Made by a program: the position numbers and the translations under genes. From Candidatus Undinarchaeales archaeon (GTDB taxonomy: Archaea > Undinarchaeota > Undinarchaeia > Undinarchaeales > JALTGF01): 54,917 nucleotides of DNA. The stretch covers positions 1 through 54,917 of the forward strand of contig JAWOEA010000008.1 of NCBI GenBank assembly GCA_046483005.1, written 5' to 3'. Shown piece after piece: positions 3,764 to 46,668 of this stretch (positions are counted from its first letter, which is position 1; every line of letters begins with the position of its first letter). Under the pieces are notes generated by a model. The model saw only the letters and a list, made by a program, of their open reading frames with translations. It ran no database searches and had not been told where the DNA came from.

Positions 3764-4045
3764 ATGGGTATTAAACAGGAAATAGAAAACCACCTTAAAT
3801 ACAAATTTTCTATAGGAGACCGGACTATAGAGAAACTTGCAGAGCTGTATAAAAGAGATAAGGAATATGTTAAAACTTTTTTGAAACTTGCTGAAAAATT
3901 AAGATATGGAGATGAGAAAAAAAGAAGACATATTAATGAAAAGATGAAAAAGAAATCAGCAGGTAAAAGGCACATAATTAAAATTAAAAAACCAAGCGGC
4001 AAAACTGAAAAATACAAAAGATATCAAATTAGAATCAGTTATTAA
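3764..4045 (+). CDS. Hypothetical small basic protein
   Basis: Starts 2 nt after the stop of the preceding ORF. Lys/Arg-rich, no recognised motif. Its 3' end overlaps the convergent rnj by 11 nt. Confidence 0.35.
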   Translation: MGIKQEIENHLKYKFSIGDRTIEKLAELYKRDKEYVKTFLKLAEKLRYGDEKKRRHINEKMKKKSAGKRHIIKIKKPSGKTEKYKRYQIRISY

Positions 4046-5378
4046 AAATCTTTTTCTGTCCGTTTCTTAATAGATGTATATTATCCCCGAGCTTGTAATT
4101 TTCGCCGGTATTTTGATTATATTCTTCAGAAGCTAAATCAGCATAAGCAGCAAGTTTTTGGATGTCGCCGTGACAGGGAATTAAATTTTTAGGATTCAAC
4201 CTTTTAATTAAATCTCTGTGGTCTTCTCTGTCAGCATGTCCTGAAACATGAACATCTCTGAAAACTCTTCCACCCTGTGAAATTATGTTTTCTTCAAGTT
4301 TATGCCTGTTTTGTATGTTTATTGGAGTAGGAATTGTTCTGCATGAGAAAATAACCTGATCTTCTCTTTCTATTTTATAAGAATAATCTCCATTGACAAT
4401 TCTGGAAAGAATTGCTCTGGGCTCGCCCTGTCCTCCTGTAACTACAATTAAATGGTCCTGTTTATTTTTTGCAGCTTTTTTGAAAACCTTTTTCATTGCT
4501 TTTTGTCTTCCCATTACATCTAAATTAGGGAATTTTTTGATTCCAACAGCTTCTGCAACTTTGATATATTTTGCAAGAGACCGCCCGCAGAAAGAAACTT
4601 TCCTGTCCAGTTTTTTAGCTGCCTCCTGAATTGAATTTAATCTTTCAATATGAGATGAAAAACTTGTTACTAAAATTCCATTAGTATCATTAATAGTAGT
4701 TGTAAGTGTATCTTTAAGCATCTCTCTTGCAATCACTTCACCGGGGGTTTTATTGTATTCTTCTGAACCTACCGATTCAACAATTGCAACCTCAACTCCT
4801 TCTTTGCCAAGTTTCTTCATTCTTTTATAGTCAGGAGGTTTTGTGAGAGCCTGACTGTTGTCAAATTTGAAATCAGAAGCATAATAAACAATTCCTTCCG
4901 GTGTATGCAGAGCAGTATGAACTGTTTGGGGAGTTGAATGAGTTAAATGAACAAATTCAACTTCTGTTTTTCCTACATCTACTTTCTCTCCGGCTTCCAT
5001 AGTAACTGTATTAATTCTGTTGAATTTTTTATGAGGCATTGAATTTCTTAAAAATTCCATTGTAAATGGAGTTCCTATAACCGGGGCATCGTAGCGTTTT
5101 GCCATATATTCAACAGCTCCGCAGTGGTCTAAATGAGCGTGAGAAATTACAATTGCTTTAACATTGTCCTTCATTTTTTGAATTGGTTTATCGTCGGGAA
5201 GAACGCCTTCATTTGTTAAATTTGGTTCCTCTGGTTTCAGGCCTTTTTCCTCAAGAGCCATAAGAGGATCCAAATGAATGCCCATGTCAAGAAGAATTAT
5301 TTCATCATCTACCTTGACTGCAGTCATATTCTTTCCGACTTCTTCATATCCGCCTAGTGAGTAAATTTCTATTGTCAT
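4035..5378 (-). CDS. rnj: Archaeal RNase J (metallo-beta-lactamase / beta-CASP ribonuclease)
   Basis: MBL motif 'ISHAHLDHCGA', beta-CASP-type C-terminal motifs ('VHVSGHADRED', 'PCHGD'). The 447-aa length without KH domains fits aRNase J. Confidence 0.85.
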   Translation of the reverse strand: MTIEIYSLGGYEEVGKNMTAVKVDDEIILLDMGIHLDPLMALEEKGLKPEEPNLTNEGVLPDDKPIQKMKDNVKAIVISHAHLDHCGAVEYMAKRYDAPVIGTPFTMEFLRNSMPHKKFNRINTVTMEAGEKVDVGKTEVEFVHLTHSTPQTVHTALHTPEGIVYYASDFKFDNSQALTKPPDYKRMKKLGKEGVEVAIVESVGSEEYNKTPGEVIAREMLKDTLTTTINDTNGILVTSFSSHIERLNSIQEAAKKLDRKVSFCGRSLAKYIKVAEAVGIKKFPNLDVMGRQKAMKKVFKKAAKNKQDHLIVVTGGQGEPRAILSRIVNGDYSYKIEREDQVIFSCRTIPTPINIQNRHKLEENIISQGGRVFRDVHVSGHADREDHRDLIKRLNPKNLIPCHGDIQKLAAYADLASEEYNQNTGENYKLGDNIHLLRNGQKKIFNN

Positions 5379-5486
5379 TTTGTTTCGTTTCTGCGCGTAG
5401 CGCAGGTTTTTTGATCAAACTTTTTTTCGAAAAAAGTTTGTCCGGGTTCTTCATATCCGCCTAGTGAGTAAATTTCTATTGTCATT
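5340..5486 (-). repeat. Composite element E1: perfect 40-bp direct repeats (5340-5379, 5447-5486) flanking a 67-bp two-hairpin insert (5380-5446). Candidate micro mobile element / engineered leader
   Basis: Both copies read 'ttcttcatatccgcctagtgagtaaatttctattgtcatt' and cover position -1 to codon 13 of rnj. The insert has the GC hairpin ctgcgc-gta-gcgcag (5391-5405), the core TTTTGATCAAACTTTT (5409-5424) and the hairpin caaactttt...aaaagtttg (5416-5440). Confidence 0.9.
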
Positions 5487-5537
5487 GTTTGTATTTTTAT
5501 TATTGATTTGAATACTTGTTTTTTTGCGTATATAAAT

Positions 5538-8876: not shown

Positions 8877-9518
8877 TTGGACGCCAAAAAAATAGACGAA
8901 AATTTAAAGAAATATTTGAAAGGAACAACTACAGTCGGAATAGTATGCGACGAAGGAGTAGTCGTGGCCAGCGACAGCAGAGCTACTATGGGCTTCATGA
9001 TTTCTGACAAAGAAGCAAGAAAAATATACAAGATTAATGACAAACTTGCAATGACAACTGCAGGTATGGTCGGAGACAATCAAACATTAGTCAGGATAAT
9101 GAGAGCTCAGTCAAATCTTCAGAAAATGGAAGGAGACGGACTTTCAGTAAAAATGGCTGCAACTCTTCTTGCAAACATATTAAATCAGCAGAGATACTTC
9201 CCGTTTTTGGCTCAGGTTATTATCGGAGGACATGACAAAAAGGGAGGCCATGTATTTGAATTAGATCCTGTAGGCGGAATTTCTGAGAAAAATGTCGCAT
9301 CAACAGGTTCAGGATCACCGGTTGCATATGGTGTTCTTGAAAGGGAATATAAAGAAGGAATAAGCATTGAAGAAGGAAAGAAAATGGCCGCACATGCAAT
9401 TAATTCAGCTCTTGAAAGGGATGCTGCAACTGGAAACAATGTCAGAATTGTAGTTATTGATAAAGACGGATACAAAGAAGTTGAAGAAAAAGAAATTAAG
9501 AAACTTCTAAGTGAATAA
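8877..9518 (+). CDS. psmB: Proteasome beta subunit (start uncertain: TTG 8877, GTG 8868 or GTG 8772)
   Basis: Propeptide followed by active-site 'G|TTTVGI'. TATA-like 'ctttataaa' (~8806) and SD-like 'tgaggtg' (8864-8870) favour the internal start. The track ORF begins at GTG 8772. Confidence 0.85.
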   Translation: MDAKKIDENLKKYLKGTTTVGIVCDEGVVVASDSRATMGFMISDKEARKIYKINDKLAMTTAGMVGDNQTLVRIMRAQSNLQKMEGDGLSVKMAATLLANILNQQRYFPFLAQVIIGGHDKKGGHVFELDPVGGISEKNVASTGSGSPVAYGVLEREYKEGISIEEGKKMAAHAINSALERDAATGNNVRIVVIDKDGYKEVEEKEIKKLLSE

Positions 9519-9575
9519 AAAATTTAGAATTATTTTGTGAAAAACCTGAAAATCAATTGAAAAAGACTAACGATT

Positions 9576-11483
9576 ATGAAATTCTTAGAACAATTAAAGA
9601 AAGAACTGCCTGATAAAGCAGAGGTAGAGGATATTACCCTTGAAGGGAGCAAGATAGTTATCCTTACCAAAAATCCAGACTTTTTCAGGAAGAACTCTCA
9701 TTTTATAAAGGAGACTGTAGATAAATTTAAGAAAAGAGTAGAAATCAGGACTCATTCATCTATATTGATGGATCAGGAAGAAGCTGAAGAGAAAATTAGA
9801 GAGATAGTTCCAGAAGAGGCAGATATTAAAAATATAATATTTTTAACCGAACTGAGCAGAGTTATTATTGAGGCCAGAAAACTGGGACTCGTCATAGGTA
9901 AAAACGGAAGCACCCTGCATGAAATTAAAAATAAAACTAAGTGGACCCCAAAAATTGAAAGAATGCCGGTTATTAAATCTCAGATTACGGATATAATCAG
10001 ACAAGTTCTCTATAATAATGTAGAAGACAGGAAAAAATTCCTAGAAGAGCTTGGAAAAAAGATACCTCCTAAACTGAACGGAAAAGAAACGGAAGATGAA
10101 ACTTGGGTTCGTTTAACATCACTAGGAGGATTCCGAGAAATAGGAAGAACTTCTTTACTTGTACAAACTCCGGACAGTAAAATATTGATTGACTGCGGAG
10201 TAAATGTAGCAACAGAAGGAAATGGAGCATACCCTTATTTAGCTGCTCCGGAATTTAATATTAAAGAGCTTGATGCAGTTTGTATTACACACGCACACCT
10301 GGATCATAGTGGATTTCTTCCCTATTTATTCAAATACGGGTATAAAGGACCAGTATATTGCACCCCTGCTACAAGGGACTTAATGACTCTCTTACAGCTT
10401 GATTATGTTGATATTGCTCAGAGAGAAGGTAAGAAGGTGCCTTACACGAAGAGGGACATAGAAGATGTAATAAAGCATACAATTACGGTTGATTGGGAGG
10501 AAGTTACAGACATTACAAAGGATACCAGATTAACATTATATAATTCAGGGCACATTCTTGGCGCTTCGCAGGTTCATTTACATGTAGGAGAAGGTCTGCA
10601 CAATTTGATTTATACGGGGGACGTTAAAACAGTCAATACTAATTTATTCCAGGGAGCGACTTCTAAATTTATGAGATTGGAAACATTGATAATGGAGGCA
10701 ACCTACGGAGGAAAAAAAGATGACCAGCCTTCTTTGAAGGATGCAGAAGAACATTTTATTGGAAATATTAAAAAAACACTGGAGAGAGGAGGAAAAGCAC
10801 TTGTTCCTGTTCTTGCAGTAGGCAGAGCGCAGGAAGTGATGGTTGTTCTTGAAAAATATCACAGAGAGAATAAACTTCCTGAAGACCTAAATATTTACCT
10901 TGACGGAATGATATGGGATGCTACTGCAATTCATACTGCATATCCTGAAAATCTTTCCAAAAAATTGAGGCAGAGAATTTTCCATGAAGACGACAATCCA
11001 TTTATGTCTGAAATTTTCAACAGAATAGGCTCACAGAAAGAGAGAAAATCATTAATTGAAGATGGAAAACCTGCAGTTATTCTTGCAACATCAGGAATGC
11101 TTACAGGAGGACCAAGTATAGAATACTTTAGAAATCTTGCAGATGATAAGAAGAACAGTCTTCTATTTGTTTCATATCAGGCAGAAGGAACTCTCGGAGG
11201 CAGAATACAGAGAGGAAAGAGAACAGTTGCCCTTGAAGGTAAAAAAGGAAAAACAGAAGCAGTTGAAGTAGAATTAGATGTTGATACTATTGAAGGATTT
11301 TCAGGGCACTCAGACCGAAGTGATTTAATGAATTTTGTAGGCAGAATGAAACCAAGACCGAACAAAGTGCTTGTATGCCACGGAGAGAACTCAAAATGTA
11401 TTGATTTGGCAAGCTCATTATATAAAAAATATAATTTAGATACATACGCTCCAAAGAATCTTGAGACTATCAGACTTAAATAA
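9576..11483 (+). CDS. aCPSF1 / FttA (KH-KH + MBL + beta-CASP ribonuclease, transcription termination factor)
   Basis: 635 aa. N-terminal KH modules ('GLVIGKNGSTLHEI'), MBL 'ITHAHLDHSG', beta-CASP and C-terminal 'GFSGHSDRSDL', 'CHGE'. Confidence 0.9.
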   Translation: MKFLEQLKKELPDKAEVEDITLEGSKIVILTKNPDFFRKNSHFIKETVDKFKKRVEIRTHSSILMDQEEAEEKIREIVPEEADIKNIIFLTELSRVIIEARKLGLVIGKNGSTLHEIKNKTKWTPKIERMPVIKSQITDIIRQVLYNNVEDRKKFLEELGKKIPPKLNGKETEDETWVRLTSLGGFREIGRTSLLVQTPDSKILIDCGVNVATEGNGAYPYLAAPEFNIKELDAVCITHAHLDHSGFLPYLFKYGYKGPVYCTPATRDLMTLLQLDYVDIAQREGKKVPYTKRDIEDVIKHTITVDWEEVTDITKDTRLTLYNSGHILGASQVHLHVGEGLHNLIYTGDVKTVNTNLFQGATSKFMRLETLIMEATYGGKKDDQPSLKDAEEHFIGNIKKTLERGGKALVPVLAVGRAQEVMVVLEKYHRENKLPEDLNIYLDGMIWDATAIHTAYPENLSKKLRQRIFHEDDNPFMSEIFNRIGSQKERKSLIEDGKPAVILATSGMLTGGPSIEYFRNLADDKKNSLLFVSYQAEGTLGGRIQRGKRTVALEGKKGKTEAVEVELDVDTIEGFSGHSDRSDLMNFVGRMKPRPNKVLVCHGENSKCIDLASSLYKKYNLDTYAPKNLETIRLK

Positions 11484-18110: not shown

Positions 18111-18452
18111 TTAATTAAAATGCTTCTTTTTCAGCTTCTTAATGGTTCCTGAAACGCCTAAAGTAGTTACTGACGCCTTCTTTTTGTTGATTGAAGTTAT
18201 TGCCGTCAATGCCCCGAGGACTTCTGTTAGGGCTTTATTTGAACATCTGAGAATTCCCTTTTTCTTTTCTTTATTGTAATCAATGAGCCAGACATTCGTT
18301 TCAGAGGCGCCGGCTTCGCCGAAAAGCTGGAGAATTGAAGAAGTTATAGTATGTATAATGTTATTTTTTGAAGGTTTTGCTTCTGAAAATACAGAAAAGG
18401 CTATATACCTCCATGTTTCCTTCTGTGTTGCCCTGACTTTGAATTTTACCAT
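18111..18452 (-). CDS. rnp2: RNase P protein component 2 (Pop5)
   Basis: 'WRYIAFSV', 'GILRC', C-terminal 'GVSGTIKKLKKK' are Pop5-like. Adjacent to rpp30. Confidence 0.7.
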   Translation of the reverse strand: MVKFKVRATQKETWRYIAFSVFSEAKPSKNNIIHTITSSILQLFGEAGASETNVWLIDYNKEKKKGILRCSNKALTEVLGALTAITSINKKKASVTTLGVSGTIKKLKKKHFN

Positions 18453-18569
18453 TGTTATAGCATTGCATAGATTGGGCCGAAGGCCGCCTTTTGATCAAAC
18501 TTTTGCGCGAAGCGGAAAAGTTTGCGACACGTTTCCTTCTGTGTTGCCCTGACTTTGAATTTTACCATT
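18415..18569 (-). repeat. Composite element E2: perfect 39-bp direct repeats (18415-18453, 18531-18569) flanking a 77-bp two-hairpin insert (18454-18530). Same family as E1
   Basis: Both copies read 'gtttccttctgtgttgccctgactttgaattttaccatt' and cover position -1 to codon 13 of pop5. The insert has the GC hairpin ggcc-gaa-ggcc (18475-18485), the identical core TTTTGATCAAACTTTT (18489-18504) and the hairpin caaactttt...aaaagtttg (18496-18524). Confidence 0.9.
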
Positions 18570-18572
18570 TAA

Positions 18573-19244
18573 TTATATTTTTTTCACTCCTTTTCCAACT
18601 GACTTTCTGCCTTTCCTTTTTCTATTTCTTTCAACTATTTTTTTAGGCGTCTTTAAAACTGCTTTTTTAGCTTCATCCGGTTTGAACCCGATAGATTCTG
18701 CGAAAGCAACAAGCTGTTTTGGGCTCCTCATTCCATACATATCTGAAGCTCCGGAAGTAAATATTAAAGGAGTGTTGTATTTTCTTGCCATCCTCAAATC
18801 AAACTTTATTTTTGAAATTAAATTCGCTCTTTTCATTCCATATGTTGAAAGAATATCTTTTAAATTGATTTCAAGAGCTATATTATTATCAGCGCAGTCT
18901 CTCGCAGCACTTTGATCTACAAAAGCATGTGAAATTATATCTACTCCCTTCATTTCAGGAGCGGCCCGCATTGCCCGATCATCTCTTGAACTTACAAAAA
19001 CAATATCAACCTGGTTTCTGACTTTGTCCAGCTGAGTTTTTATCTTTCCTTTTGTTTTCTTTGTTATTTCAACTGCTGAGATTAAGTCTATATTTGAATA
19101 TTCTTTTTCAAACTTTTCTTTTGCTTTTTCATACCTGCTCTTATTAAAATTATTTTTAAAAACAATACCCAGTCCTTTAACTCCTAAATTAGCTAAACCA
19201 TTTAATTCTCCATTTAAGACTGCTGTATTATGTAAATCGTACAT
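18573..19244 (-). CDS. rnp3: RNase P protein component 3 (Rpp30)
   Basis: 223 aa, N-terminal 'MYDLH'. TIM-barrel-type pattern and superoperon position. Confidence 0.75.
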   Translation of the reverse strand: MYDLHNTAVLNGELNGLANLGVKGLGIVFKNNFNKSRYEKAKEKFEKEYSNIDLISAVEITKKTKGKIKTQLDKVRNQVDIVFVSSRDDRAMRAAPEMKGVDIISHAFVDQSAARDCADNNIALEINLKDILSTYGMKRANLISKIKFDLRMARKYNTPLIFTSGASDMYGMRSPKQLVAFAESIGFKPDEAKKAVLKTPKKIVERNRKRKGRKSVGKGVKKI

Positions 19245-26640: not shown

Positions 26641-29600
26641 TTAATCGTGATTATTCATTTCTTTCTGTCTTTTCTTTCTTAGGTTTTCTTCTTTTTTCTT
26701 CTTACGGGCTCTTTTCTTTTTAGCTTTCTTTTCGGCTCTTTTCTTTTTGAATTTCTTGAACCATGATTCTTTATTTTTAGTTTTCTTTGCTTTCTTCTTT
26801 GCTTTTTTATCTGATTTCTTTTGCTGTTTCTTTTCTTTCTTTTTCTCTACTTTTTGTTTCTTCCGCTGTTTCTTTCTCGCTTCTTTTTCTGATTTCTTTT
26901 CTGCCTTTTCTTTTTTCCAGTCTTTAAGTTTGCTGGATAAATTTTTAAATGGATTTTGTTTCTTTTCCTTGGATTTTCTCTGGATTTGGAGTCTTGATTT
27001 TCCTATTTTGGGTTTTTTCTTTCTGAACTTGAGTTTGTTTCTTAACCAGCCTCTTTCTTTGATTGCTTTGCCTGCTTCCTGGACTGCGAGTTCTTCTTCA
27101 ACTTCTGATAATCTCTTTCTTAAAGTGTTGATTCTATGCTTGTAGGCTCTTGTTTCGATTTTGTTTTCTTTCAGATATGCATTCTGGGTTTCTTTGATTA
27201 ACTGCATCAGTCTCTTTCTTTCAATTTCTGCTCTGTTTTCTGCCTTGAACAGGCTCTTATGAGCAATTCTTTCTGATTCGTAGGCAATTGATTTTTGTAC
27301 TGCTCCGGCCAGCTGTTCTTCATACTGGTTCATTGATGTTTTATAGTCGTTCATGCTCATTGTTTTTCTTTTGAACGTTTCTTTTTGGACTTCCTGCATT
27401 AAGCCTACTATTGTTTTTTGGTCTTCTCTTAAAGTGTCCAGTTTATGGTCTATGTACATCAGTTTTCCTTTCCAGTAGATTCCGAAGGCGGTAATTGATG
27501 CCAGAATTGAACCTAGAAGGACCTGTTTCCAGTTGATTAGAATGAATCTGAATAAATTGAATTCGCCTTTTGTTTCAACTACAAACAAATATTCTGCTTC
27601 TTCAATTCTTTCTAAAGCTGAATTGTAGTCTCCTCGTAGGAATGCTGCTTTTGCCAGGTTTAGTGTTTTTTCCGTTCTTGGAGTATTTACTCCTTCGTAG
27701 CTTGCTTGTTCTATTTTGTCTTCAAGTTCAGCTATTTTATCTTCTGAAGTGAAGGCTGCATCTCGGAATGCTTTTGCCTGTTCGTATTTTGCTTGGACTG
27801 CATCGTAATCGTGTTCTTCCATTAATGCTTTTGCTTCTTCTAATAATTCGGGCATGTCCTTGATTTTGAAGCCGCCTTCCTGCATTTCAGATATACTTTC
27901 GTTTAATCTTTCAATTGATATTTCAGCTTCATCTTCGCTTACGGTATGTATGAAAAGAGTGATATTTCTGTCTTCATCCATGTTGGTTGCAAGTCCGGGG
28001 ACATACGCCGTTCCTTTTATATTTAGGACTAAATCATGCTTTCCTGCTGTAAAGTATTCAGGAGCAGTAATGTAAATGAAGAAGCTTTCGCTTTCATTTA
28101 CTCCTATATGTTTGACTTCAGCAGGTTCAACTCGTAAGTATTGAGCTAAGAAGCCGGATACGTTTAGGGTTGTGTTTTTTAGTGGAGCGTAAGTGAATGG
28201 ATTTTCTACTTTCATTCTGAAGAAATTATCTTCTCCTCTTACAATGTCATACATTTCCTCCGTCTGGAAGACTTTCTGCCTTTCAGATTCTCCGAGACCT
28301 CCGCCTCCTCCTCCGCCGGATCCGGTTCCTCCCGTTGTCTCTTCAATTACAGTTTCTCCGGTTACAATATCAGTAGTTAAAGTTACATTTTTTGTTGAAC
28401 AGTTTTCACATCCTGCCACTAAATAATAAGTTACAGTATCTTCAGTTGCAGTGCTTGATACTGAAATAGTTATATTATTCCAGCTTATCTGGTCTACAGA
28501 CATAGAACCAATTGAAGTATCATTTAAATTTCCGCTTGTTAAACTGAATTCGCTGGGTAAATCCCAGTACAGCCAGGAACCGGTTGATGATTCGTTTCCG
28601 CTGTTTTTAACTGAGCCGTTTAGCAGTATACCGGTGTCTCCGGGGCTTACTGATAGAGGTGTTTCATAGTCTTGTATATACATGTAAGGTCCGCCTGCAG
28701 ATAAAATTGCTAATGCGCTTGATGATAAACTCGGCGTTGTTGTTGAATTTGCAGTTACTGTAAAGGATATATTAAACTGTATATCCGCATTAATTGGTTT
28801 GCCCCAGATTTCAATTACCCTTGAATTTCCGGCAGATAAATTGAATGAAGAATTATAACTCATTGTAATCTGCTGGGTCGGGGCGTCGTCTGAAATTGAA
28901 AACGCAAGCGTCCTGTCTCCGGTATTATTAATTGTTAAATTTCCAATTGAAGTGTTTTCGTCCTGTATTATAGTTACATCGCCGAAACTATTCGGGCTTA
29001 AAGTCCAGTTGTATTCCCAGGCAACTTCAATTGTCGTATTGCTTGAAGTATTTGAATTGCTTTCATTGTCTTCGGCATAAACTTTGTAGGTCCAGTTGTT
29101 TGCCTGATAAGGGTCAAGGGCGTAGTAATAGGAAGCCCAGTTGCTTCCGTTGTCATATTTAGTCATCGAGAAGTTGGACCAGGTGTCTCCTTCCTGTTTA
29201 TACACCAAATTAACAGTAGATAAAGTGCTGTACTCTGTTAAATTTGCAGTTACATTTACTTCAGTTCCGGGGTCTAAATTATCCGCGCCGGTTGGCGTAT
29301 GAGAAATTGAAGTGAATACAGGAGGAGTTGCGTCGGCAATATTCGTGCTGTTCTGGCTTGAAACTGAATTTGCGGCCAGGTCGTAGGCAGTCATATTGCA
29401 GGTCAAGTTTCCTGCTCCTGCGTCTCCGGCGTAAATACTTAAGTTCGCCCATGTACTTGATGCACCTACCTGTCTGGTTGTCTCATTATTTAAACCGCTG
29501 CTGTTTATTGTTATTAAAACATAATCCAGCTCTACATCATCTGAAAAGTTGGCTGAACAGGTTACATACTCAGTGTCAGTTACACTGCTGTCGTTGAAAG

Positions 29601-32600
29601 TTACATTATTTACTATGGTTGGATCCACTTCATCTAAAGTTTCCTCTGAACCTAAGCTGGAAGTTAAAGGATTGTCAAGTTTTACATACGTGTCGTTTAT
29701 TTCATTATAACTGTCTGTTGCTAAACCAGTTGTTCTTGCTAACTTAGTGTAGAAATAATCTCCTACAGAAGGCGTAAATGAGCCGGATTTCATTGCCCTG
29801 GTGTAATATTCGTATGATGCTGAATCATACACATTTGTCTGGACAGAGTAAGATAAACTCTGTTTTTGGTCCAGAAAGATGTCTCCCACAAAATTCTGTG
29901 TTGCAGGGTTATGGAACAACACCCAGGTTATATTTCCTACGTCCCCTGTATCTGCTCCGTCTCCTGAGCCGGCGGGCTGGGTTGCTGTCTGATTACTCTC
30001 ATTCATATATGAAATGTTTTCAAACGTTCCGTCCTGCAGGAATACTTTCCTATCATAATAAGTGGTCCAGTCAATTCCCTCTAAAGAAGTTGTATTTGTT
30101 TCAACAATTAGATAATCTCTAAACATTCTGTAAGTTATTGAATAGTTTATTGAACAGGGACTCATCAAACCGCTTGCTGTGTATTCTATTAAAATCGGAC
30201 CGGAATCAACTGAGATGTCTGGAGATGACTGAGAAGTAATTGAACAGGTCCTGTCCGGCCTCTGAACCTGAGGCGCCAGATTCATCGGGTCGTTTCCGCT
30301 TATGTTTGAATTTGTTCCTCTCTTTGCTTTGAACTGGTCTAGTATTCCTCCTGCGGAGTGGTTCGTCCTGAGCCATAGGTTGTCGTTCTCAAGTTCGGAA
30401 TAATTTGAATCTAATGCACTATTCAATAAAGTTGGATAATTCCTTTCAGTTAAATTTGAACTGCTGTAGTAAACATAATAATTTCTGGTTTCTGATTTGT
30501 TTAAACTTGCATAGAAAACTACATTTGCATTTGAAATAGTTGAACCGCTCCAGGTTCTGTTGTATATTTGGCTTGGTATTTCAATTAAATCAGTTGAGTT
30601 GTTTACAACTACCCTGACGCTTGAGTCGGAGGAGCCACTGCTGAAAGTTATTGGTATATTTGCAATATCTCTGTGCCTCTCGACCACTCCCGGTTCAGTT
30701 ATATTTAATTCCGCTCTGAACGGATAGCTCTGCCCGTCTGCATCCAGCGTCCTGTTCTGCCAGACCGCCCCCATATAAATTAAATGATTGAAGTTGACTT
30801 CGTGTATTGTTATGTTTGACCAGTTTGCTGAATTGTTTACAGTATAATTATATGAAAATATTCCGGATTCATTTGTCATTGCTGAATCGCTTACCCTCTC
30901 TCCGCCTGCATCAGTTATAGTTATATTCGGAATTACAGTGAAAACGCCTTCAATTTTTATAGTTGCGTTTGTTCCGTTTGCAAAGAACAGTCTTGGAAGA
31001 GAATTGCTGTAGCTTGTTTCGTTTGTTTTGAATGTCTTTATTTTCTGGACAACTGCTTTATCATTTGTTAACGGATGGTAGTCGCCTCCGGATGCAATGT
31101 TTGAGCTTGAATTGTATGGAGTTATTGAATCTCCTAATCCGTCGTTTGTTGTATCTACTCCGGAATAGTCGCCCCAATAGTTTCCTCCTAAATAAGCTCC
31201 TCCGATTATGTTTGTTCCTTTTGTTGCTGAGATATTCCAGTCATTCGTGCTTGAAGCATCTGAGTCGTAGGCATTTACTCCGTTGCCTGAAATCCAGTTG
31301 TTGTAGATTAGGTTGTTTTCTGAGGTTGAACTTATATTTATTCCTGCATTTGTATTGTTGAAGACTCTGTTGTTTGTAAAATTGGAATTGTCAAAATCAT
31401 ATAGATAAACACCCATAGAGTTGTTATAGACAGTATTATTCGTTATATTACCATAACCAACGGGTTCTTCAATCGAGCCCCCCTGTATTCCTGCTTCAGT
31501 ATTATTGAATATAGTATTATTGTAAATTAAATTATAATTAGAACTATCATCTAAAAGAATCCCATCCTGTAAGTTAATGTGAATAGTATTATTAGATAAT
31601 GTAGTATTGACGCTTCCAGCGGTTATGTGGATGCCATTATAAGTATTGTTGAAAACACTGTTGCCGATTATATTATTATTGTAAGTATGACGCAATTCAA
31701 TGCCATTCTGAGAGTTGTTGTAGACAGTGTTATTAATTAAATTATTTCGCTCAATAGCTATTTCTCCTCCTCTCACATAAATTCCGTTTTGAGCGTTGTT
31801 ATAAACCGAGTTGTTGGTTAGATTATTGTCATTGGCGTCGTCATGTCCGTAAAGATAAATTCCATATTGAGTATTATTGTAAATAGTATTATTAATCAGG
31901 CTGTTGTTTGAAGATCGATATACATATATTCCGTGGTTTGAATTGTTGTAAATTGTATTGTTTATTAAAATATGATTTGTTGCTTCATCTAAATATATAC
32001 CATCAGCAGAAATATTTTTGATGACGTTGTTTTTCACGGTATTGTTAGAATTGCCGGTATCCGAATCATAAAAAGCCAGCCCGTCGTCATTGCTATTACT
32101 TATAATATTACTTGAAAAGGTACTAGTATTAGTAGTTTCAATTCTAAGTGCGCGAGTTTTGAAAGTATACTTGAAGGTATTATTAGTGATATTAAGCCAG
32201 CTGCAATGTTCAGTATATAACCCAGTTGTTGCATTACCGACAGTATTGTTTTTTACAGATAGATTTGTTGAATATTTTGGATAGATAAGTGTTGAATAAT
32301 TACCAATAGTGCAGTCCTTTACAGTTACATTTTCCTGACTAGTTACATTAATTCCATATCCTGAATTATCTCCTCTTATGGTGGCTCCGCTGCAGTTCAG
32401 AGTGACATTGCTGGAATTGATTATTATAACTCCATCAAAGGTTTCAGAGTCGTTCATTAAGTAAGTGCCTGTACAAAGAGTAGTCGTTTCATTCATTATG
32501 TACTGATTTCCATAATCATAAGGATTAATACAAGTCGTATTTACTCTGATAGTGTAGTTTTCAGATTCATTTGAATTTGAGCCGTCGGTTGCATTTATCC

Positions 32601-34914
32601 AGAACCAGTAGAGGCCGTCTGACAGAGAGCTTGTAGTTAAGGTTGTTGCAGTATCATTTGAAACAGAAGAATTGAAACTTTCATTGTAAGTTGTTGCATC
32701 AGATGTATTGTACAAATATAAGGTTGCTGAAGTAGTGCTTACTGCATTATCTGTTACATTAAACTGGATATTTGCTCTAGGATTTGTTGTATTTGTCGCA
32801 TTTGCTGTCATTACATAGATGGTCGGCGAGGTTGCATCTATATGAATAGTATAATTCCCACTGGTTGCAGTATTATTTCCGTCCGATACATTTATCCAAA
32901 ACCAGAAAGTTCCTGACCCGCCGAAATCAATGTTGCTGAAGTTGCTTACCGTGTTGTTCTGTACTGAACCATTATAACTTGTATTTCCTGAGCCGGCAAT
33001 GTAAAATGTCGCCTGCAGTCCGGTTGCATTATCCGGGTCAGTAACATTGTAGTAGAATATATGCCCGGATGCAGATGAATTTGCTGAACCATTTGTGTAG
33101 TTAATTATCTGTACAGACGGAGCATTAGATGGAGCAGGAGCTCCTCCGCCTTCTTCGTTTCCTGAAACTTCTAATAAGGTTGGGCTTGTTGTTGCATCTC
33201 CTACAAAATAAGTTCTTACCTTGAAGTCGGAAGAAATGTTTGAAATGTTGCCGTGAATTGAAGTATTTGAAGAATCCAAAGTAATTGTTGTTCCACTTGT
33301 TGTTGTATTGTTGTATTTTGCATAAGTTCCTAAATAGATGTCTTCTACCTCATCTGCGGATAATGCTCTGTCGAATATTGCGATGTCGTCGAGTACACCG
33401 TTGAAATATTTATCCGCATCCAGTCTTGCACCTATAAACATACCTGTTTCTCCTGCAATGGTTGAGGGAGTATTTGTACCAGATTGAGCCACGCCATCTA
33501 TATATAATTGACCGGACGAAGAACCGTCAAAGGTGTAAGCAAAAAAATACCAAGTGTCAGTATTTATGCTTCCAGAAGACGCGCCCTGCCAACTGCCGTC
33601 ATAGAAAGCAGCTCTTAAATCTCCTGATATAGACGCAATACCAAATCTATTAGAATTTGACTTTTGGTGGTTCACTACTACTACAGAGCTGGTATCATCA
33701 TCAAGATTTATCCATCCAGTAAAAGTTAAAGGAGAACTCTCATCAATTTCGGCAATGGTTCCTCCGATGTCTATATAATCTCCCGTTCCATCAAAGTCGT
33801 ATGCCTGTCCGAATCTACCGCTTACTGCTGTTGCTCCATACACTGTTCCATCATTTAAGCCCAGTTCATCATCTGCGTTTCCTTCCAACCGCCAATAGGA
33901 TGTGAGGTTTGAATCATCTCTCAGATAGGTATTGTCCAAAGGCACCGTTGAACTCGTATTATTCAAAAATTTTATCTTTTCAATGTAATTGGTTGCATTC
34001 AAATCGGAAAAGTCCAGAGTTAAATTAGCCAAACTGGCCGAAATGCTTAAATTCCCTGATGTCCAGTAGCCGGTTGATTTATAGGCGTTTCCTGAGTTGT
34101 ATAAGTCGGAAATTTCTGAAGCAGATAAAACTCTGTCATATACTTTTATGTCGTCAATGATTCCGTCGAAATTTCTGCCGGTTGCTCCGCCGTCTGCAAC
34201 GGTAACTCTACCGACTGCACCTAAATCTGTAGCCGCATTTACATCACTGTCTTCATAAGTCCCATTTAAATAAAGAGTTACATTATGAGCTGAAGCATCC
34301 CATGAAGCACAAAGATGATAAGTTGTTCCAGTTGTAATTATTGCGTTTGCCTCTGTACTATCTGCATCTCTGTGTATAATTCTAAGCTCGCTTACTTCTG
34401 TATCTATAGCAATGAGAACTCCATACCAGGTATTAGTAGTTTGTTCATGATAAATTGCACTGTCTATCCCAACGCTCCCTCTGTCTATAAAACTTTCTGC
34501 ATTAAACCAAAAGCATGTTGTTCTATTGCCGGTAGGAAGACCGGACGGACTTGAATCGTAAAGATAATCTCCTGTTCCGTCAAAATCAAGTGCATCTCCT
34601 ACCATTCCGGAAACATTCTGCGGGTCTCCGCCCACGGTCAGATTATTAACTCCAAGCTCATCCGTCTGATTTCTTTCAAGCATCCAGTATGCAATTAAAT
34701 TATCGTCTTTTTCTCTGTGTGGAGCATCAAGAGCCAGAGTTCCGGATGGAATGCCGTACATATCGGTGTCTGAAGAAGTATTAACTTTTGTTCCAGTATC
34801 AAACTGCAGTCCGGTTGTTATATTAAAATCGGCTGCAAAAGCGGGCAGAGTAAATAGAATAAGCGTAATTAAAAAAACTGTAGATAGTATTGTTAGTTTA
34901 CTGCTGTAATCCAT
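26641..34914 (-). CDS. Giant (2757 aa) type-I membrane-anchored surface protein: signal/anchor, 2x LamG-like, Ig-like repeats, PbH1/NosD-type right-handed beta-helix, long Asn/Ser/Thr-rich ectodomain, one TM, coiled-coil and poly-Lys cytoplasmic tail
   Basis: Single uninterrupted ORF. 'DDIKVYDRVLSASEISDLY' and 'LDDIAIFDRALSADEVEDIY' are LamG_3-type. Repeated 'N.TI.NNS..GI.L' units are PbH1. TM 'VLLGSILASITAFGIYW' lies 274 aa from the C-terminus. Confidence 0.85.
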   Translation of the reverse strand: MDYSSKLTILSTVFLITLILFTLPAFAADFNITTGLQFDTGTKVNTSSDTDMYGIPSGTLALDAPHREKDDNLIAYWMLERNQTDELGVNNLTVGGDPQNVSGMVGDALDFDGTGDYLYDSSPSGLPTGNRTTCFWFNAESFIDRGSVGIDSAIYHEQTTNTWYGVLIAIDTEVSELRIIHRDADSTEANAIITTGTTYHLCASWDASAHNVTLYLNGTYEDSDVNAATDLGAVGRVTVADGGATGRNFDGIIDDIKVYDRVLSASEISDLYNSGNAYKSTGYWTSGNLSISASLANLTLDFSDLNATNYIEKIKFLNNTSSTVPLDNTYLRDDSNLTSYWRLEGNADDELGLNDGTVYGATAVSGRFGQAYDFDGTGDYIDIGGTIAEIDESSPLTFTGWINLDDDTSSVVVVNHQKSNSNRFGIASISGDLRAAFYDGSWQGASSGSINTDTWYFFAYTFDGSSSGQLYIDGVAQSGTNTPSTIAGETGMFIGARLDADKYFNGVLDDIAIFDRALSADEVEDIYLGTYAKYNNTTTSGTTITLDSSNTSIHGNISNISSDFKVRTYFVGDATTSPTLLEVSGNEEGGGAPAPSNAPSVQIINYTNGSANSSASGHIFYYNVTDPDNATGLQATFYIAGSGNTSYNGSVQNNTVSNFSNIDFGGSGTFWFWINVSDGNNTATSGNYTIHIDATSPTIYVMTANATNTTNPRANIQFNVTDNAVSTTSATLYLYNTSDATTYNESFNSSVSNDTATTLTTSSLSDGLYWFWINATDGSNSNESENYTIRVNTTCINPYDYGNQYIMNETTTLCTGTYLMNDSETFDGVIIINSSNVTLNCSGATIRGDNSGYGINVTSQENVTVKDCTIGNYSTLIYPKYSTNLSVKNNTVGNATTGLYTEHCSWLNITNNTFKYTFKTRALRIETTNTSTFSSNIISNSNDDGLAFYDSDTGNSNNTVKNNVIKNISADGIYLDEATNHILINNTIYNNSNHGIYVYRSSNNSLINNTIYNNTQYGIYLYGHDDANDNNLTNNSVYNNAQNGIYVRGGEIAIERNNLINNTVYNNSQNGIELRHTYNNNIIGNSVFNNTYNGIHITAGSVNTTLSNNTIHINLQDGILLDDSSNYNLIYNNTIFNNTEAGIQGGSIEEPVGYGNITNNTVYNNSMGVYLYDFDNSNFTNNRVFNNTNAGINISSTSENNLIYNNWISGNGVNAYDSDASSTNDWNISATKGTNIIGGAYLGGNYWGDYSGVDTTNDGLGDSITPYNSSSNIASGGDYHPLTNDKAVVQKIKTFKTNETSYSNSLPRLFFANGTNATIKIEGVFTVIPNITITDAGGERVSDSAMTNESGIFSYNYTVNNSANWSNITIHEVNFNHLIYMGAVWQNRTLDADGQSYPFRAELNITEPGVVERHRDIANIPITFSSGSSDSSVRVVVNNSTDLIEIPSQIYNRTWSGSTISNANVVFYASLNKSETRNYYVYYSSSNLTERNYPTLLNSALDSNYSELENDNLWLRTNHSAGGILDQFKAKRGTNSNISGNDPMNLAPQVQRPDRTCSITSQSSPDISVDSGPILIEYTASGLMSPCSINYSITYRMFRDYLIVETNTTSLEGIDWTTYYDRKVFLQDGTFENISYMNESNQTATQPAGSGDGADTGDVGNITWVLFHNPATQNFVGDIFLDQKQSLSYSVQTNVYDSASYEYYTRAMKSGSFTPSVGDYFYTKLARTTGLATDSYNEINDTYVKLDNPLTSSLGSEETLDEVDPTIVNNVTFNDSSVTDTEYVTCSANFSDDVELDYVLITINSSGLNNETTRQVGASSTWANLSIYAGDAGAGNLTCNMTAYDLAANSVSSQNSTNIADATPPVFTSISHTPTGADNLDPGTEVNVTANLTEYSTLSTVNLVYKQEGDTWSNFSMTKYDNGSNWASYYYALDPYQANNWTYKVYAEDNESNSNTSSNTTIEVAWEYNWTLSPNSFGDVTIIQDENTSIGNLTINNTGDRTLAFSISDDAPTQQITMSYNSSFNLSAGNSRVIEIWGKPINADIQFNISFTVTANSTTTPSLSSSALAILSAGGPYMYIQDYETPLSVSPGDTGILLNGSVKNSGNESSTGSWLYWDLPSEFSLTSGNLNDTSIGSMSVDQISWNNITISVSSTATEDTVTYYLVAGCENCSTKNVTLTTDIVTGETVIEETTGGTGSGGGGGGGLGESERQKVFQTEEMYDIVRGEDNFFRMKVENPFTYAPLKNTTLNVSGFLAQYLRVEPAEVKHIGVNESESFFIYITAPEYFTAGKHDLVLNIKGTAYVPGLATNMDEDRNITLFIHTVSEDEAEISIERLNESISEMQEGGFKIKDMPELLEEAKALMEEHDYDAVQAKYEQAKAFRDAAFTSEDKIAELEDKIEQASYEGVNTPRTEKTLNLAKAAFLRGDYNSALERIEEAEYLFVVETKGEFNLFRFILINWKQVLLGSILASITAFGIYWKGKLMYIDHKLDTLREDQKTIVGLMQEVQKETFKRKTMSMNDYKTSMNQYEEQLAGAVQKSIAYESERIAHKSLFKAENRAEIERKRLMQLIKETQNAYLKENKIETRAYKHRINTLRKRLSEVEEELAVQEAGKAIKERGWLRNKLKFRKKKPKIGKSRLQIQRKSKEKKQNPFKNLSSKLKDWKKEKAEKKSEKEARKKQRKKQKVEKKKEKKQQKKSDKKAKKKAKKTKNKESWFKKFKKKRAEKKAKKKRARKKKKEENLRKKRQKEMNNHD

Positions 34915-46609: not shown

Positions 46610-46668
46610 GTCGAATGAAGTACCGACATCGATCTGATTTGATGATGAGTGATGGGCGGACTGACGAC
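46610..46668 (+). ncRNA. Box C/D sRNA (2'-O-methylation guide)
   Basis: Terminal stem GTCG (46610-13) / CGAC (46665-68). C-like 'aatgaag' (46614-20), 13-nt guide, D' CTGA (46634-37), C' 'atgatga' (46642-48), 12-nt guide 'gtgatgggcgga', D CTGA (46661-64). TATA 'ttttatag' at 46581-88 lies ~25 nt upstream, and an oligo-T follows. Confidence 0.65.

Follow-up and report, generated by a model that had tools for sequence, protein, structure and literature searches.

Tiny palindromic elements and long gene-end repeats are known from several systems. Repetitive extragenic palindromic (REP) sequences and REPINs, the latter with their RAYT genes, combine a short conserved head with a palindrome, are multicopy, lie mostly at gene ends and are terminator-like and non-coding; duplications of gene ends are not a known REP feature. 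Rickettsia palindromic elements (RPEs) are 100-150 bp long, are confined to Rickettsia, and occur in frame within protein genes, where they are translated. The GC clusters and "byps" of yeast mitochondria are tiny mobile hairpins of unknown mechanism found in intergenic DNA, introns and coding sequence; they have flanking repeats of 2-3 nt, and ribosomes hop over them. In attL/attR pairs and in the remnants of cis-mobilizable elements (CIMEs), the intact gene end lies by the insert and a displaced partial copy lies beyond it. Flanking repeats far longer than the target-site duplications (TSDs) of ordinary insertion sequences (IS) are left by Cas1-Cas2, by casposons, which also target tRNA genes and gene 3' ends, and, with variable length, by IS1634. 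Finally, homology-facilitated illegitimate recombination during natural transformation, described in bacteria and usually accompanied by deletions, couples one homologous anchor to one illegitimate joint and imports DNA from diverged relatives. Here we consider a contig of 54,917 nt from an uncultured Candidatus Undinarchaeales archaeon (GenBank assembly GCA_046483005.1, contig JAWOEA010000008.1; the whole stretch is called the window below), in which the genes for RNase J and for the RNase P subunit Pop5 both have a duplicated start region with a short hairpin-containing insert between the two copies.

The two inserts have in common only a hairpin core, and this core belongs to a large family that occurs in many archaea and, among bacteria, in some anaerobes and is tied to partial copies of gene ends. 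Tentatively, with a probability of roughly 0.4, we suggest that the repeats arose by homology-anchored illegitimate recombination at the base of the hairpin and that the genes are expressed by re-initiation after a read-through upstream open reading frame (uORF). The 40-nt repeat would then not be a transposase footprint.

Two duplicated gene starts

The RNase J gene (447 aa, 4035..5378, minus strand; Pfam domains Lactamase_B, RNase_J_b_CASP and RMMBL on the homologues) begins at 5378. Its 5' end, the proximal copy X (5340..5379, minus), is identical at 40 of 40 positions to a distal copy X' (5447..5486, minus) that lies 107 nt away, and weaker likeness extends over 5334-5390 versus 5441-5497. 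Each copy spans position -1 to codon 13. The native promoter and 5' untranslated region precede the distal copy, and the TATA-like box atttatatac (5528..5537, minus; read from the sequence) directly follows the stop codon of a Memo-family gene. The identical 40-mers around a 67-nt insert, their extent from the nucleotide before the ATG through 13 codons, the two hairpins and the TATA-like box upstream of the distal copy had all been described in the original prediction, and all were confirmed.

Insert E1 (5380..5446, 67 nt) consists of an 11-nt tail, the GC hairpin CTGCGC-GTA-GCGCAG (5391..5405), GTTTT, the core and the 6-nt linker TCCGGG. The GC hairpin is followed by a T run on the plus strand and is terminator-like. 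The core (5409..5440) has the head TTTTGATCAAACTTTT, which contains the 10-bp palindrome TTTGATCAAA and overlaps a perfect hairpin with an 11-bp stem (5416-5440, arms CAAACTTTTTT/AAAAAAGTTTG). E1 forms these two perfect hairpins on either strand, both as DNA and as RNA (z = -4.6 to -5.1 for DNA folding). The ends of E1 (TTGTTTCGTTT... and ...GTTTGTCCGGG), like those of the insert at Pop5, form no terminal inverted repeats; the sole inverted repeat is the internal hairpin.

At the Pop5 gene (RNase P Rpp14/Pop5, 18111..18452), the proximal copy X of the gene start (18415..18453, minus) is identical at 39 of 39 positions (41 of 42 with flanks) to the distal copy X' (18531..18569, minus), which begins 4 nt past the stop codon of the Rpp30 gene (18573..19244). 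Insert E2 (18454..18530, 77 nt) has a 20-nt tail, a GC hairpin (18475-18485), the core (18489-18524) and the 6-nt linker CGACAC. The loop of its core holds a GCGAAGC mini-hairpin; GNA-triloop DNA mini-hairpins of this kind (GCGAAGC, GCGTAGC) are stable.

The original prediction took the structure at 18415-18569 to be homologous to that at RNase J. The layout is indeed the same, but the inserts share just the core of about 25 nt (TTTTGATCAAACTTTT, loop, AAAAGTTTG), and the tail, GC hairpin, loop and 6-nt linker all differ. The pattern CAAACTTTT-N(2-16)-AAAAGTTTG has two matches in the window, both of them the inserts, and none in 100 shuffles. The two sites are also the sole long short-range direct repeats of unique sequence in the window. 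No template for the non-core parts of E1 or E2 was found elsewhere in it.

The lack of terminal inverted repeats, of a short fixed-length TSD and of a recurrent transposase partner within 2.5 kb of the core in at least 120 loci speaks against a miniature inverted-repeat transposable element or another IS-derived element.

Empty sites in related genomes

The RNase J protein encoded at locus L261 (GCA_964574035.1; L numbers denote fetched loci) is 96% identical to that of the window, and its surroundings have the same gene order. After the stop codon of the Memo-family gene come the TATA box, 46 nt of leader and one ATG...GAAGAA, uninterrupted by an insert. Such empty loci, which the original prediction had suggested looking for, recur: the RNase J site is also empty in L262, L263, L122 (82%) and L268 (59%), with the TATA box in the same place in L122 and L261. 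The distal RNase J copy of the window stands on a leader that aligns with the empty site of L261. The Pop5 site is empty in L265 (from the same metagenome-assembled genome, MAG, as L261), L266 and L267, where the Rpp30 stop codon leads straight into the ATG.

Since the orthologous sites are empty, the element was gained at the window sites, or lost in the relatives, and is not a slip of assembly; the original prediction had argued against a one-off replication slip from the recurrence of the element. A chimeric or collapsed join might be suspected, the source being a single metagenomic contig. However, two sites have the same architecture, homologous structures recur in many independent assemblies, isolates included, and the core variant of the window reappears at this locus in L121, an independent Logan contig. 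An assembly artefact is thus the least probable of all explanations considered.

The L261/L265 genome is only 79-88% identical to the window at the nucleotide level in the genes compared, so that a "recent" gain is recent in a relative sense only. Moreover, the first 40 nt of the RNase J gene are 100% identical between the window (5447-5486) and L261 (3444-3483), synonymous sites included, and thus the perfect identity of X and X' at this site is no proof of recency. The conservation of these 40 nt between the genomes suggests that the 5' end of the RNase J mRNA is under constraint beyond coding. The segment TCACTAGGCGGATATGAAGAA at the RNase J start hardly varies among five lineages.

The RNase J upstream region in other lineages

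Inserts with partial starts were found upstream of RNase J in three further lineages. The Logan contig L121 (RNase J 85% identical) has the core variant of the window about 60 nt upstream of the ATG, and the contig breaks inside the hairpin. In L123 (72%; European Nucleotide Archive, REYS20 scaffold_626), the hairpin CCTGCGC-ttc-GCGCAGG lies 10 nt upstream of the ATG and matches the GC hairpin of E1 at 18 of 19 positions, the single best match in 1.8 Mb of fetched DNA. Further upstream (9466-9885), L123 has at least three perfect tandem units of 182 nt, followed by an assembly gap. In each unit, 54 nt of leader and start are joined to a different insert, which opens with the perfect hairpin CGGCTG-tggt-CAGCCG. 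Each also contains a 60-aa ORF with the RNase J N-terminus first and a TAA stop overlapping the next ATG. L269 (66%) has one such unit, with a repeat from the ATG to +37 and 4-5 differences.

In both L123 and L269, the partial copy is adjoined by another perfect GC hairpin, and the position in RNase J is nearly identical. A perfect hairpin abutting a partial copy is not tied to one sequence. The best match of the E1 GC hairpin being an RNase J upstream hairpin, this arm is the upstream sequence of another lineage rather than cargo of a mobile unit, and the RNase J locus is a recurrent junction. Since the two inserts of the window have only the core in common, the 67-bp insert is not one conserved mobile unit.

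Candidate upstream reading frames

At both sites of the window a candidate uORF runs from the distal ATG through the insert to the start of the complete gene. uORF1 (5375..5485, minus; 36 codons, MTIEIYSLGGYEEPGQTFFEKKFDQKTCATRRNETK and stop) ends with a TGA that overlaps the proximal RNase J ATG (ATGA). uORF2 (18455..18568, minus; 37 codons, MVKFKVRATQKETCRKLFRFAQKFDQKAAFGPIYAML and stop) ends with a TAA 2 nt before the proximal Pop5 ATG. The corresponding frames in L269 (ATGA overlap) and L123 (TAATG overlap) likewise end on the main ATG. In all four cases, which represent three independent events, the frame is open through the insert and stops at, or at most 5 nt from, the main ATG; the unit lengths (107, 116, 119 and 182) are all 2 mod 3. 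Among shuffled inserts the frame stays open that far in 0.27, 0.29, 0.28 and 0.07 of trials. In L083, which also has a duplicated ORF start, the uORF ends early. The pattern points to selection for termination and re-initiation at the second ATG. Re-initiation would explain why only junctions inside the first codons persist.

One possibility is that the duplicated start and the hairpins are a locally evolved cis-regulatory device, a leader peptide or attenuator, and not primarily a footprint of mobility. RNase J or RNase P could then regulate its own synthesis, and the copies would be kept identical by selection or gene conversion. Indeed, four of the seven sampled RNase J lineages have an insert and a duplicated start (the window, L121, which is seen in part, L123 and L269), open uORFs that end at the ATG are conserved, a hairpin with a T run is terminator-like, and both genes of the window encode RNA-processing nucleases. 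On the other hand, the same core occurs with duplications at unrelated genes and tRNAs in many phyla, the closest relatives have no insert, and about 8 of some 55 genes in the window are concerned with RNA processing, so that the coincidence is weak. Such a device is improbable as the primary origin of the arrangement; it is compatible with recombination at the hairpin and does not exclude it.

The transcription start site was considered as the anchor of the -1 boundary. This is out for Pop5, given a distal ATG 4 nt past the Rpp30 stop codon, and unlikely for RNase J, where the TATA box is about 42 nt upstream; it fits L269, L045 and L099.

The hairpin core family

In the family core, a TTGATC head precedes a perfect hairpin, CAAAC-Tn-short loop-An-GTTTG. 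The core occurs in more than 240 fetched loci, which come from pattern scans of one genome for each species (at least 120 loci) and of metagenomes (where the count is likewise a lower bound). Archaeal matches include Methanosarcina, ANME-1/Methanophagales, Methanocellales, Methanobrevibacter, Thermococcus, halobacteria, Woese-, Micr-, Iain- and Altiarchaeota and one contig labelled Nitrosotalea. Bacterial matches were observed in Oscillospiraceae, Acutalibacter, Aminicenantes and Cloacimonadota. The genomes of isolates are represented by Methanosarcina sp. MSH10X1, Methanobrevibacter curvatus DSM 11111 and Acutalibacter sp.

Among the 261 distinct copies, almost all combine a perfect stem of 8-14 bp with a loop of 0-5 nt; over the whole family the loop or spacer of the palindrome ranges from 0 to 17 nt. 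In archaeal copies there is no conservation outside the core, and the left flank is no more structured than background, so that a general two-hairpin architecture was rejected. In a bacterial subfamily the core lies between AAAGTT and GC hairpins. In Oscillospiraceae (for instance L055, L051, L038, L070), two covarying GC hairpins come after the core; the loop of the second is a conserved CCGCAG, and the unit, which has no match in Rfam, ends in GAAAC. These loci look like a structured RNA or a REP-like unit. Variant cores with compensating changes in the arms (CAAGCC..GGCTTG, CAAGC..GCTTG, GAAAC..GTTTC; L072, L097, L115, L053, L212) show that the family is broader than the search pattern.

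No counterpart of the core was found in the collections searched. Rfam matched only tRNAs in the window and 23 related loci, and left the inserts unmatched even at E-values up to 5; literature searches by sequence string and keyword gave no match to the core; viral, plasmid and phage collections gave chance coding matches or none. This agrees with the original prediction, which knew of no described element with this architecture. Neither within 2.5 kb of the core in the at least 120 loci nor between paired cores is there a recurrent ORF family, and no transposase, integrase or cas1-like gene recurs as a neighbour. The family behaves like a selfish or REP-like micro-element that is very widespread and unnamed. 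It is apparently an undescribed family within a known kind, the tiny palindromic selfish or REP-like elements.

Many copies are intergenic, and many lie 0-5 nt from the 3' or 5' ends of tRNA genes. In the purL genes of two Methanosarcinales-like contigs the element is translated in frame, as ..IGQT(QTFKKSLIKN)VSQI.. with the inserted residues in brackets, at a place where the structure of a PurL homologue (3VIU) has a gap. The in-frame cores (L006, 2349-2374; L080, 6653-6676) add 10 and 23 residues in a loop missing in 3VIU. L080 is the contig labelled Nitrosotalea; its PurL is 82% identical to that of the Methanosarcinales contig L006, and it may be mis-binned.

Cores also occur in tRNA introns. 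All six core-carrying introns open 0-4 nt past the 5' splice site with CAAACTTTT..AAAAGTTTGATCAAAA. In these introns (L007, L012, L037, L043, L090, L111), which come from six archaeal lineages, the hairpin core is followed by GATCAAAA(C). A sequence-conserved module of tRNA introns shared across phyla is unexpected.

The position of these cores could suggest that the 107-nt unit at RNase J is itself an archaeal bulge-helix-bulge intron, removed by the tRNA splicing endonuclease so that a single start region is restored. However, neither site has a canonical hBHBh' candidate that would excise 107 or 116 nt in register, the minimum-free-energy folds at both contain local hairpins only, and the elements occur also in bacteria and, at gene 3' ends, in the opposite orientation. 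Splicing is thus very improbable. Taken together, the PurL, tRNA-intron, tRNA-end and intergenic contexts indicate that the element can enter DNA as a simple insertion and persists where it is harmless.

Short tandem arrays of the core with 33-93-nt spacers were observed in L061 (3723-4082, five 83-nt units), L004, L032, L072, L105, L119 and L238. They are superficially CRISPR-like, yet the "spacers" are repeated flank or gene-end segments.

Partial copies of gene ends

About a fifth of the core copies (57 of 266, versus 3 in a reversed-sequence control) have similar left and right flanks. The geometry is constant. When the core is read from TTGATCAAAC to GTTTG, the intact gene lies on the left, and a partial copy of it lies on the right and runs to the gene terminus. 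The partial copy is always on the GTTTG side, usually 0-1 nt from the base of the hairpin, and the outer boundary of the repeat is within 0-2 nt of the gene terminus in most cases. The repeats are 14 to more than 100 nt long. The association with partial gene-end copies is unusual, and it is general across the family. In a general test, a hairpin was found directly before the right-hand copy in 39 of 428 short-range repeat pairs versus 17 in the control.

The duplicated ends are of four kinds. The 3' ends of tRNA genes (L005, L010, L105) are repeated over 21-23 nt starting around the T loop. The 5' ends of tRNA genes are repeated over 26 nt in L045, 23 nt in L234, 18 nt in L099 (from -5) and 14 nt in L053; the distance from the core to +1 of the tRNA is 38 nt in L045 and 37 nt in L234, and in L053 two different elements are stacked at one tRNA end. 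The 3' ends of ORFs up to the stop codon (L239, L241, L011, L178, L169) are repeated over 19 to more than 100 nt. Finally, ORF 5' ends are duplicated at the window sites and in L083. A duplication of about 39-40 nt anchored on a start codon, for which the original prediction proposed to test every match, is thus not the rule.

The copies at ORF 3' ends are diverged in several genomes. Those of L239 differ by 8 synonymous and 2 non-synonymous codons, L241 is similar, and in L178 and L011 both copies encode the same C-terminal peptide and stop with different codons. Such pairs seem to have evolved as coding sequence in different genomes, and the divergence of the L239, L178 and L011 pairs argues that they were not made by gap repair after a staggered cut. 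An integrase- or Cas1-like cut with a fixed stagger, close to what the original prediction compared the repeat to, is contradicted both by the range of lengths and by the mostly synonymous differences.

A long-stagger reaction may nevertheless be considered in a more general form. A trans-acting enzyme would insert the hairpin, gap repair would duplicate 14-110 nt, and insertions that restore the gene would survive; the diverged pairs would reflect later spread between lineages with the repeat as a homology arm. The perfect repeats of the window, with near-equal lengths (40 and 39 nt) and the same outer boundary, fit this, as do the empty sites, the simple insertions without a large repeat (PurL, in frame) and the successive different elements at the tRNA end of L053. 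However, there is no ruler in lengths of 14 to more than 100 nt, and boundaries so close to the gene terminus are not predicted by selection alone. In addition, the window copies differ everywhere outside the core though both would be recent, the E1 arm is locus-specific, and no candidate enzyme recurs near some 260 copies. We consider this explanation unlikely.

The direct repeat made of the gene end and the restored intact gene are what is found at att sites. This could suggest a miniature integrative element, a small circle carrying a gene-end copy and the hairpin as a recombinase site, which would integrate in the Campbell manner with an integrase supplied in trans, as in attL/attR of tRNA-targeting proviruses or CIME-type remnants. 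The restored gene end and the partial copy displaced from it correspond exactly to the products at att sites; junctions in tRNA genes lie within the T-loop region or the D-arm, or else 37-38 nt away from the 5' end; elements accrete at one site (L053, L105, L219); and the diverged coding-like pairs are in agreement. So is L184, where two direct cores with the same 45 nt flank a cassette of 790 nt with two genes. On the other hand, a circle of 53-250 bp would be implausibly small to recombine as double-stranded DNA, no integrase was found in or beside the element, hardly any repeats lie more than 250 nt apart, the palindrome has a loop or spacer that varies from 0 to 17 nt, and the junction-side sequences of the intact genes are unlike the core. 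Integration of this kind is quite unlikely.

Apart from L184, almost no long-range partners (beyond 250 nt) of the partial copies were found. In L184 (797-1735), the cores are in direct orientation, each is followed by the 45-nt stretch, and the segment of about 790 nt between them has two small genes on the minus strand. The 45-nt stretch encodes a 20-aa ORF, M(S/P)(N/D)EESYLNESLRKIAKANF and stop, that ends inside the core, which gives the locus a cassette-like look.

Several other identities were rejected. A guide RNA (scaffold plus 40-nt guide, TnpB/Cas12-like) lacks a nuclease gene, the orientation is neither sense nor antisense throughout, and diverged pairs would mismatch. For an integron attC-like site, GTTTGAT is a poor fit to GTTRRRY and the junction is not inside the arm. 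In a diversity-generating retroelement the differences would fall on adenines of the template repeat only; those in L239 and L241 involve all four bases and are codon-synonymous, and the repeats of the window are identical. CRISPR, Cas1 or casposon integration is at odds with the variable length and the absence of a recurrent cas1-like neighbour; the ORFs of the window are syntenic housekeeping genes.

Origin of the repeats

Recombination anchored by homology on one side and ended by the hairpin on the other could produce the arrangement at RNase J as follows. Donor DNA from another allele or a related lineage, with the core, GC hairpin, short leader and ATG, would meet an element-free copy of the locus. 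On one side, a homologous crossover would occur inside the conserved 5' coding region. The other end would be set by the hairpin, which may block exonuclease and polymerase, and would be joined illegitimately about 40 nt inside the resident ORF. The product would have the resident promoter, the resident first 13 codons, the hairpin segment and the complete gene, in this order. The repeat would seem to end at the start codon, and elsewhere at the stop codon or tRNA end, because the parental sequences cease to be alike there. Ribosomes would start at the native ATG, translate the open frame of 36-37 codons across the insert and stop at or next to the second ATG, from which the real protein would be made after re-initiation. 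The arrangement would be tolerated because termination beside the second ATG lets ribosomes re-initiate.

This model would account for the locus-specific arms, the junctions at the hairpin base, the variable lengths, the coding-like divergence and the boundaries at gene ends. It draws support from the empty sites, the sharing of the core only, the match of the E1 arm in L123, the core variant of L121, the flank geometry, the coding-like divergence, the uORFs and the absence of a recurrent transposase or integrase.

Several observations weigh against it. In the fetched DNA we found neither a donor allele with the exact E1 or E2 arrangement minus the duplication nor any match to the arms of E2. 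The Pop5 copies X and X' are identical at 39 of 39 positions, whereas the nearest relative differs at 4 of 39, which requires either a very close donor or the action of gene conversion. Both events in the window share the outer boundary (-1) and near-equal length (39-40 nt), a coincidence that suits a measured reaction better than two separate illegitimate joins. The 6 nt beside the core are similar to the gene at just 3-4 of 6 positions. No recombination tract is visible in RNase J against L261, nor is one resolvable in RNase J or Pop5 against the nearest relative. The case for the predicted re-initiation is statistical, and the statistics come from three independent events. Finally, the model does not account for the movement of the bare core itself.

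Alternatively, the TTGATC-hairpin core could be a new class of non-coding mobile element, able to spread between as well as within genomes of both domains through hairpin-dependent copy-choice or strand transfer. In such homing by duplication, the reaction would inherently copy the terminal segment of the neighbouring gene, and later rounds of spread would use this copy for homology. Cores in tRNA introns and at tRNA ends, ORF starts and ORF ends would all be outcomes of one mechanism. This is possible but doubtful.

Other features of the window

The window encodes proteasome, exosome and RNase P subunits. The nearest named matches of its RNase J belong to DPANN-type MAGs, and an exact look-up of the protein found no record. 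The region 46611-46667 (plus) has sub-threshold Rfam matches to archaeal C/D box sRNAs (sR2, 26.4 bits; snoPyro_CD; sR12) and may be an unannotated C/D box guide RNA. A 2757-aa ORF (26641-34914, minus) is similar to a large surface protein encoded beside the syntenic region of the relative L265; low-complexity repeats rich in T and C occupy 26650-26920, at the 3' end of the ORF.

Implications

If the family is confirmed, a palindromic element of 25-35 bp that crosses domains, unannotated in hundreds of genomes, joins the catalogue of selfish and REP-like elements. If the proposed expression is true, essential genes can absorb an insertion inside their first codons through a duplicated start and a read-through uORF coupled to the real start, which is of relevance for translation re-initiation in archaea. 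For gene calling, start sites and spurious small ORFs are easily mis-assigned at such loci in DPANN and methanogen genomes. The diverged coding-like partial copies would be footprints of recombination between related lineages at gene ends and possible markers of gene flow. The tie to tRNA ends and to the first bases of tRNA introns offers a testable lead on the gain of introns by archaeal tRNA genes.

Comparison with known systems

The core resembles REP and REPIN sequences in its head, palindrome, copy number, terminator-like appearance and preference for gene ends. However, it is conserved across phyla and in both domains, and it occurs also inside ORFs and tRNA introns. There is no inverted-doublet organisation and no HUH gene, either in the 55-kb window or in the 2-14 kb considered at each other locus. 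The in-frame element of PurL (QTFKKSLIKN) is analogous to translated RPEs, but the core is only 25-35 bp long, is found in both domains and is tied to partial gene-end copies.

Integrative elements come close in the position of the intact and displaced gene ends, in stacking and in the diverged coding-like pairs; here, the "element" has 26-165 bp and no integrase, and the junction is at the base of a perfect hairpin. The repeats far exceed ordinary TSDs, as do those left by Cas1-Cas2, casposons and IS1634. However, Cas1-type repeats are of fixed length, no terminal inverted repeats surround the whole insert here, and no Cas1 or IS1634-type transposase was found near any core copy.

The hairpins of yeast mitochondria are similar in size, in the range of contexts and in the use of a translational trick. 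Whereas byps are hopped over, a 39-40-nt repeat with its own start codon would allow re-initiation, and a hop would be unneeded. Homology-facilitated illegitimate recombination has the same combination of an anchor and a joint and the same import of diverged DNA. In the present case, however, the joints recur at a hairpin, and the outcome is a duplication, probably filtered by translational coupling.

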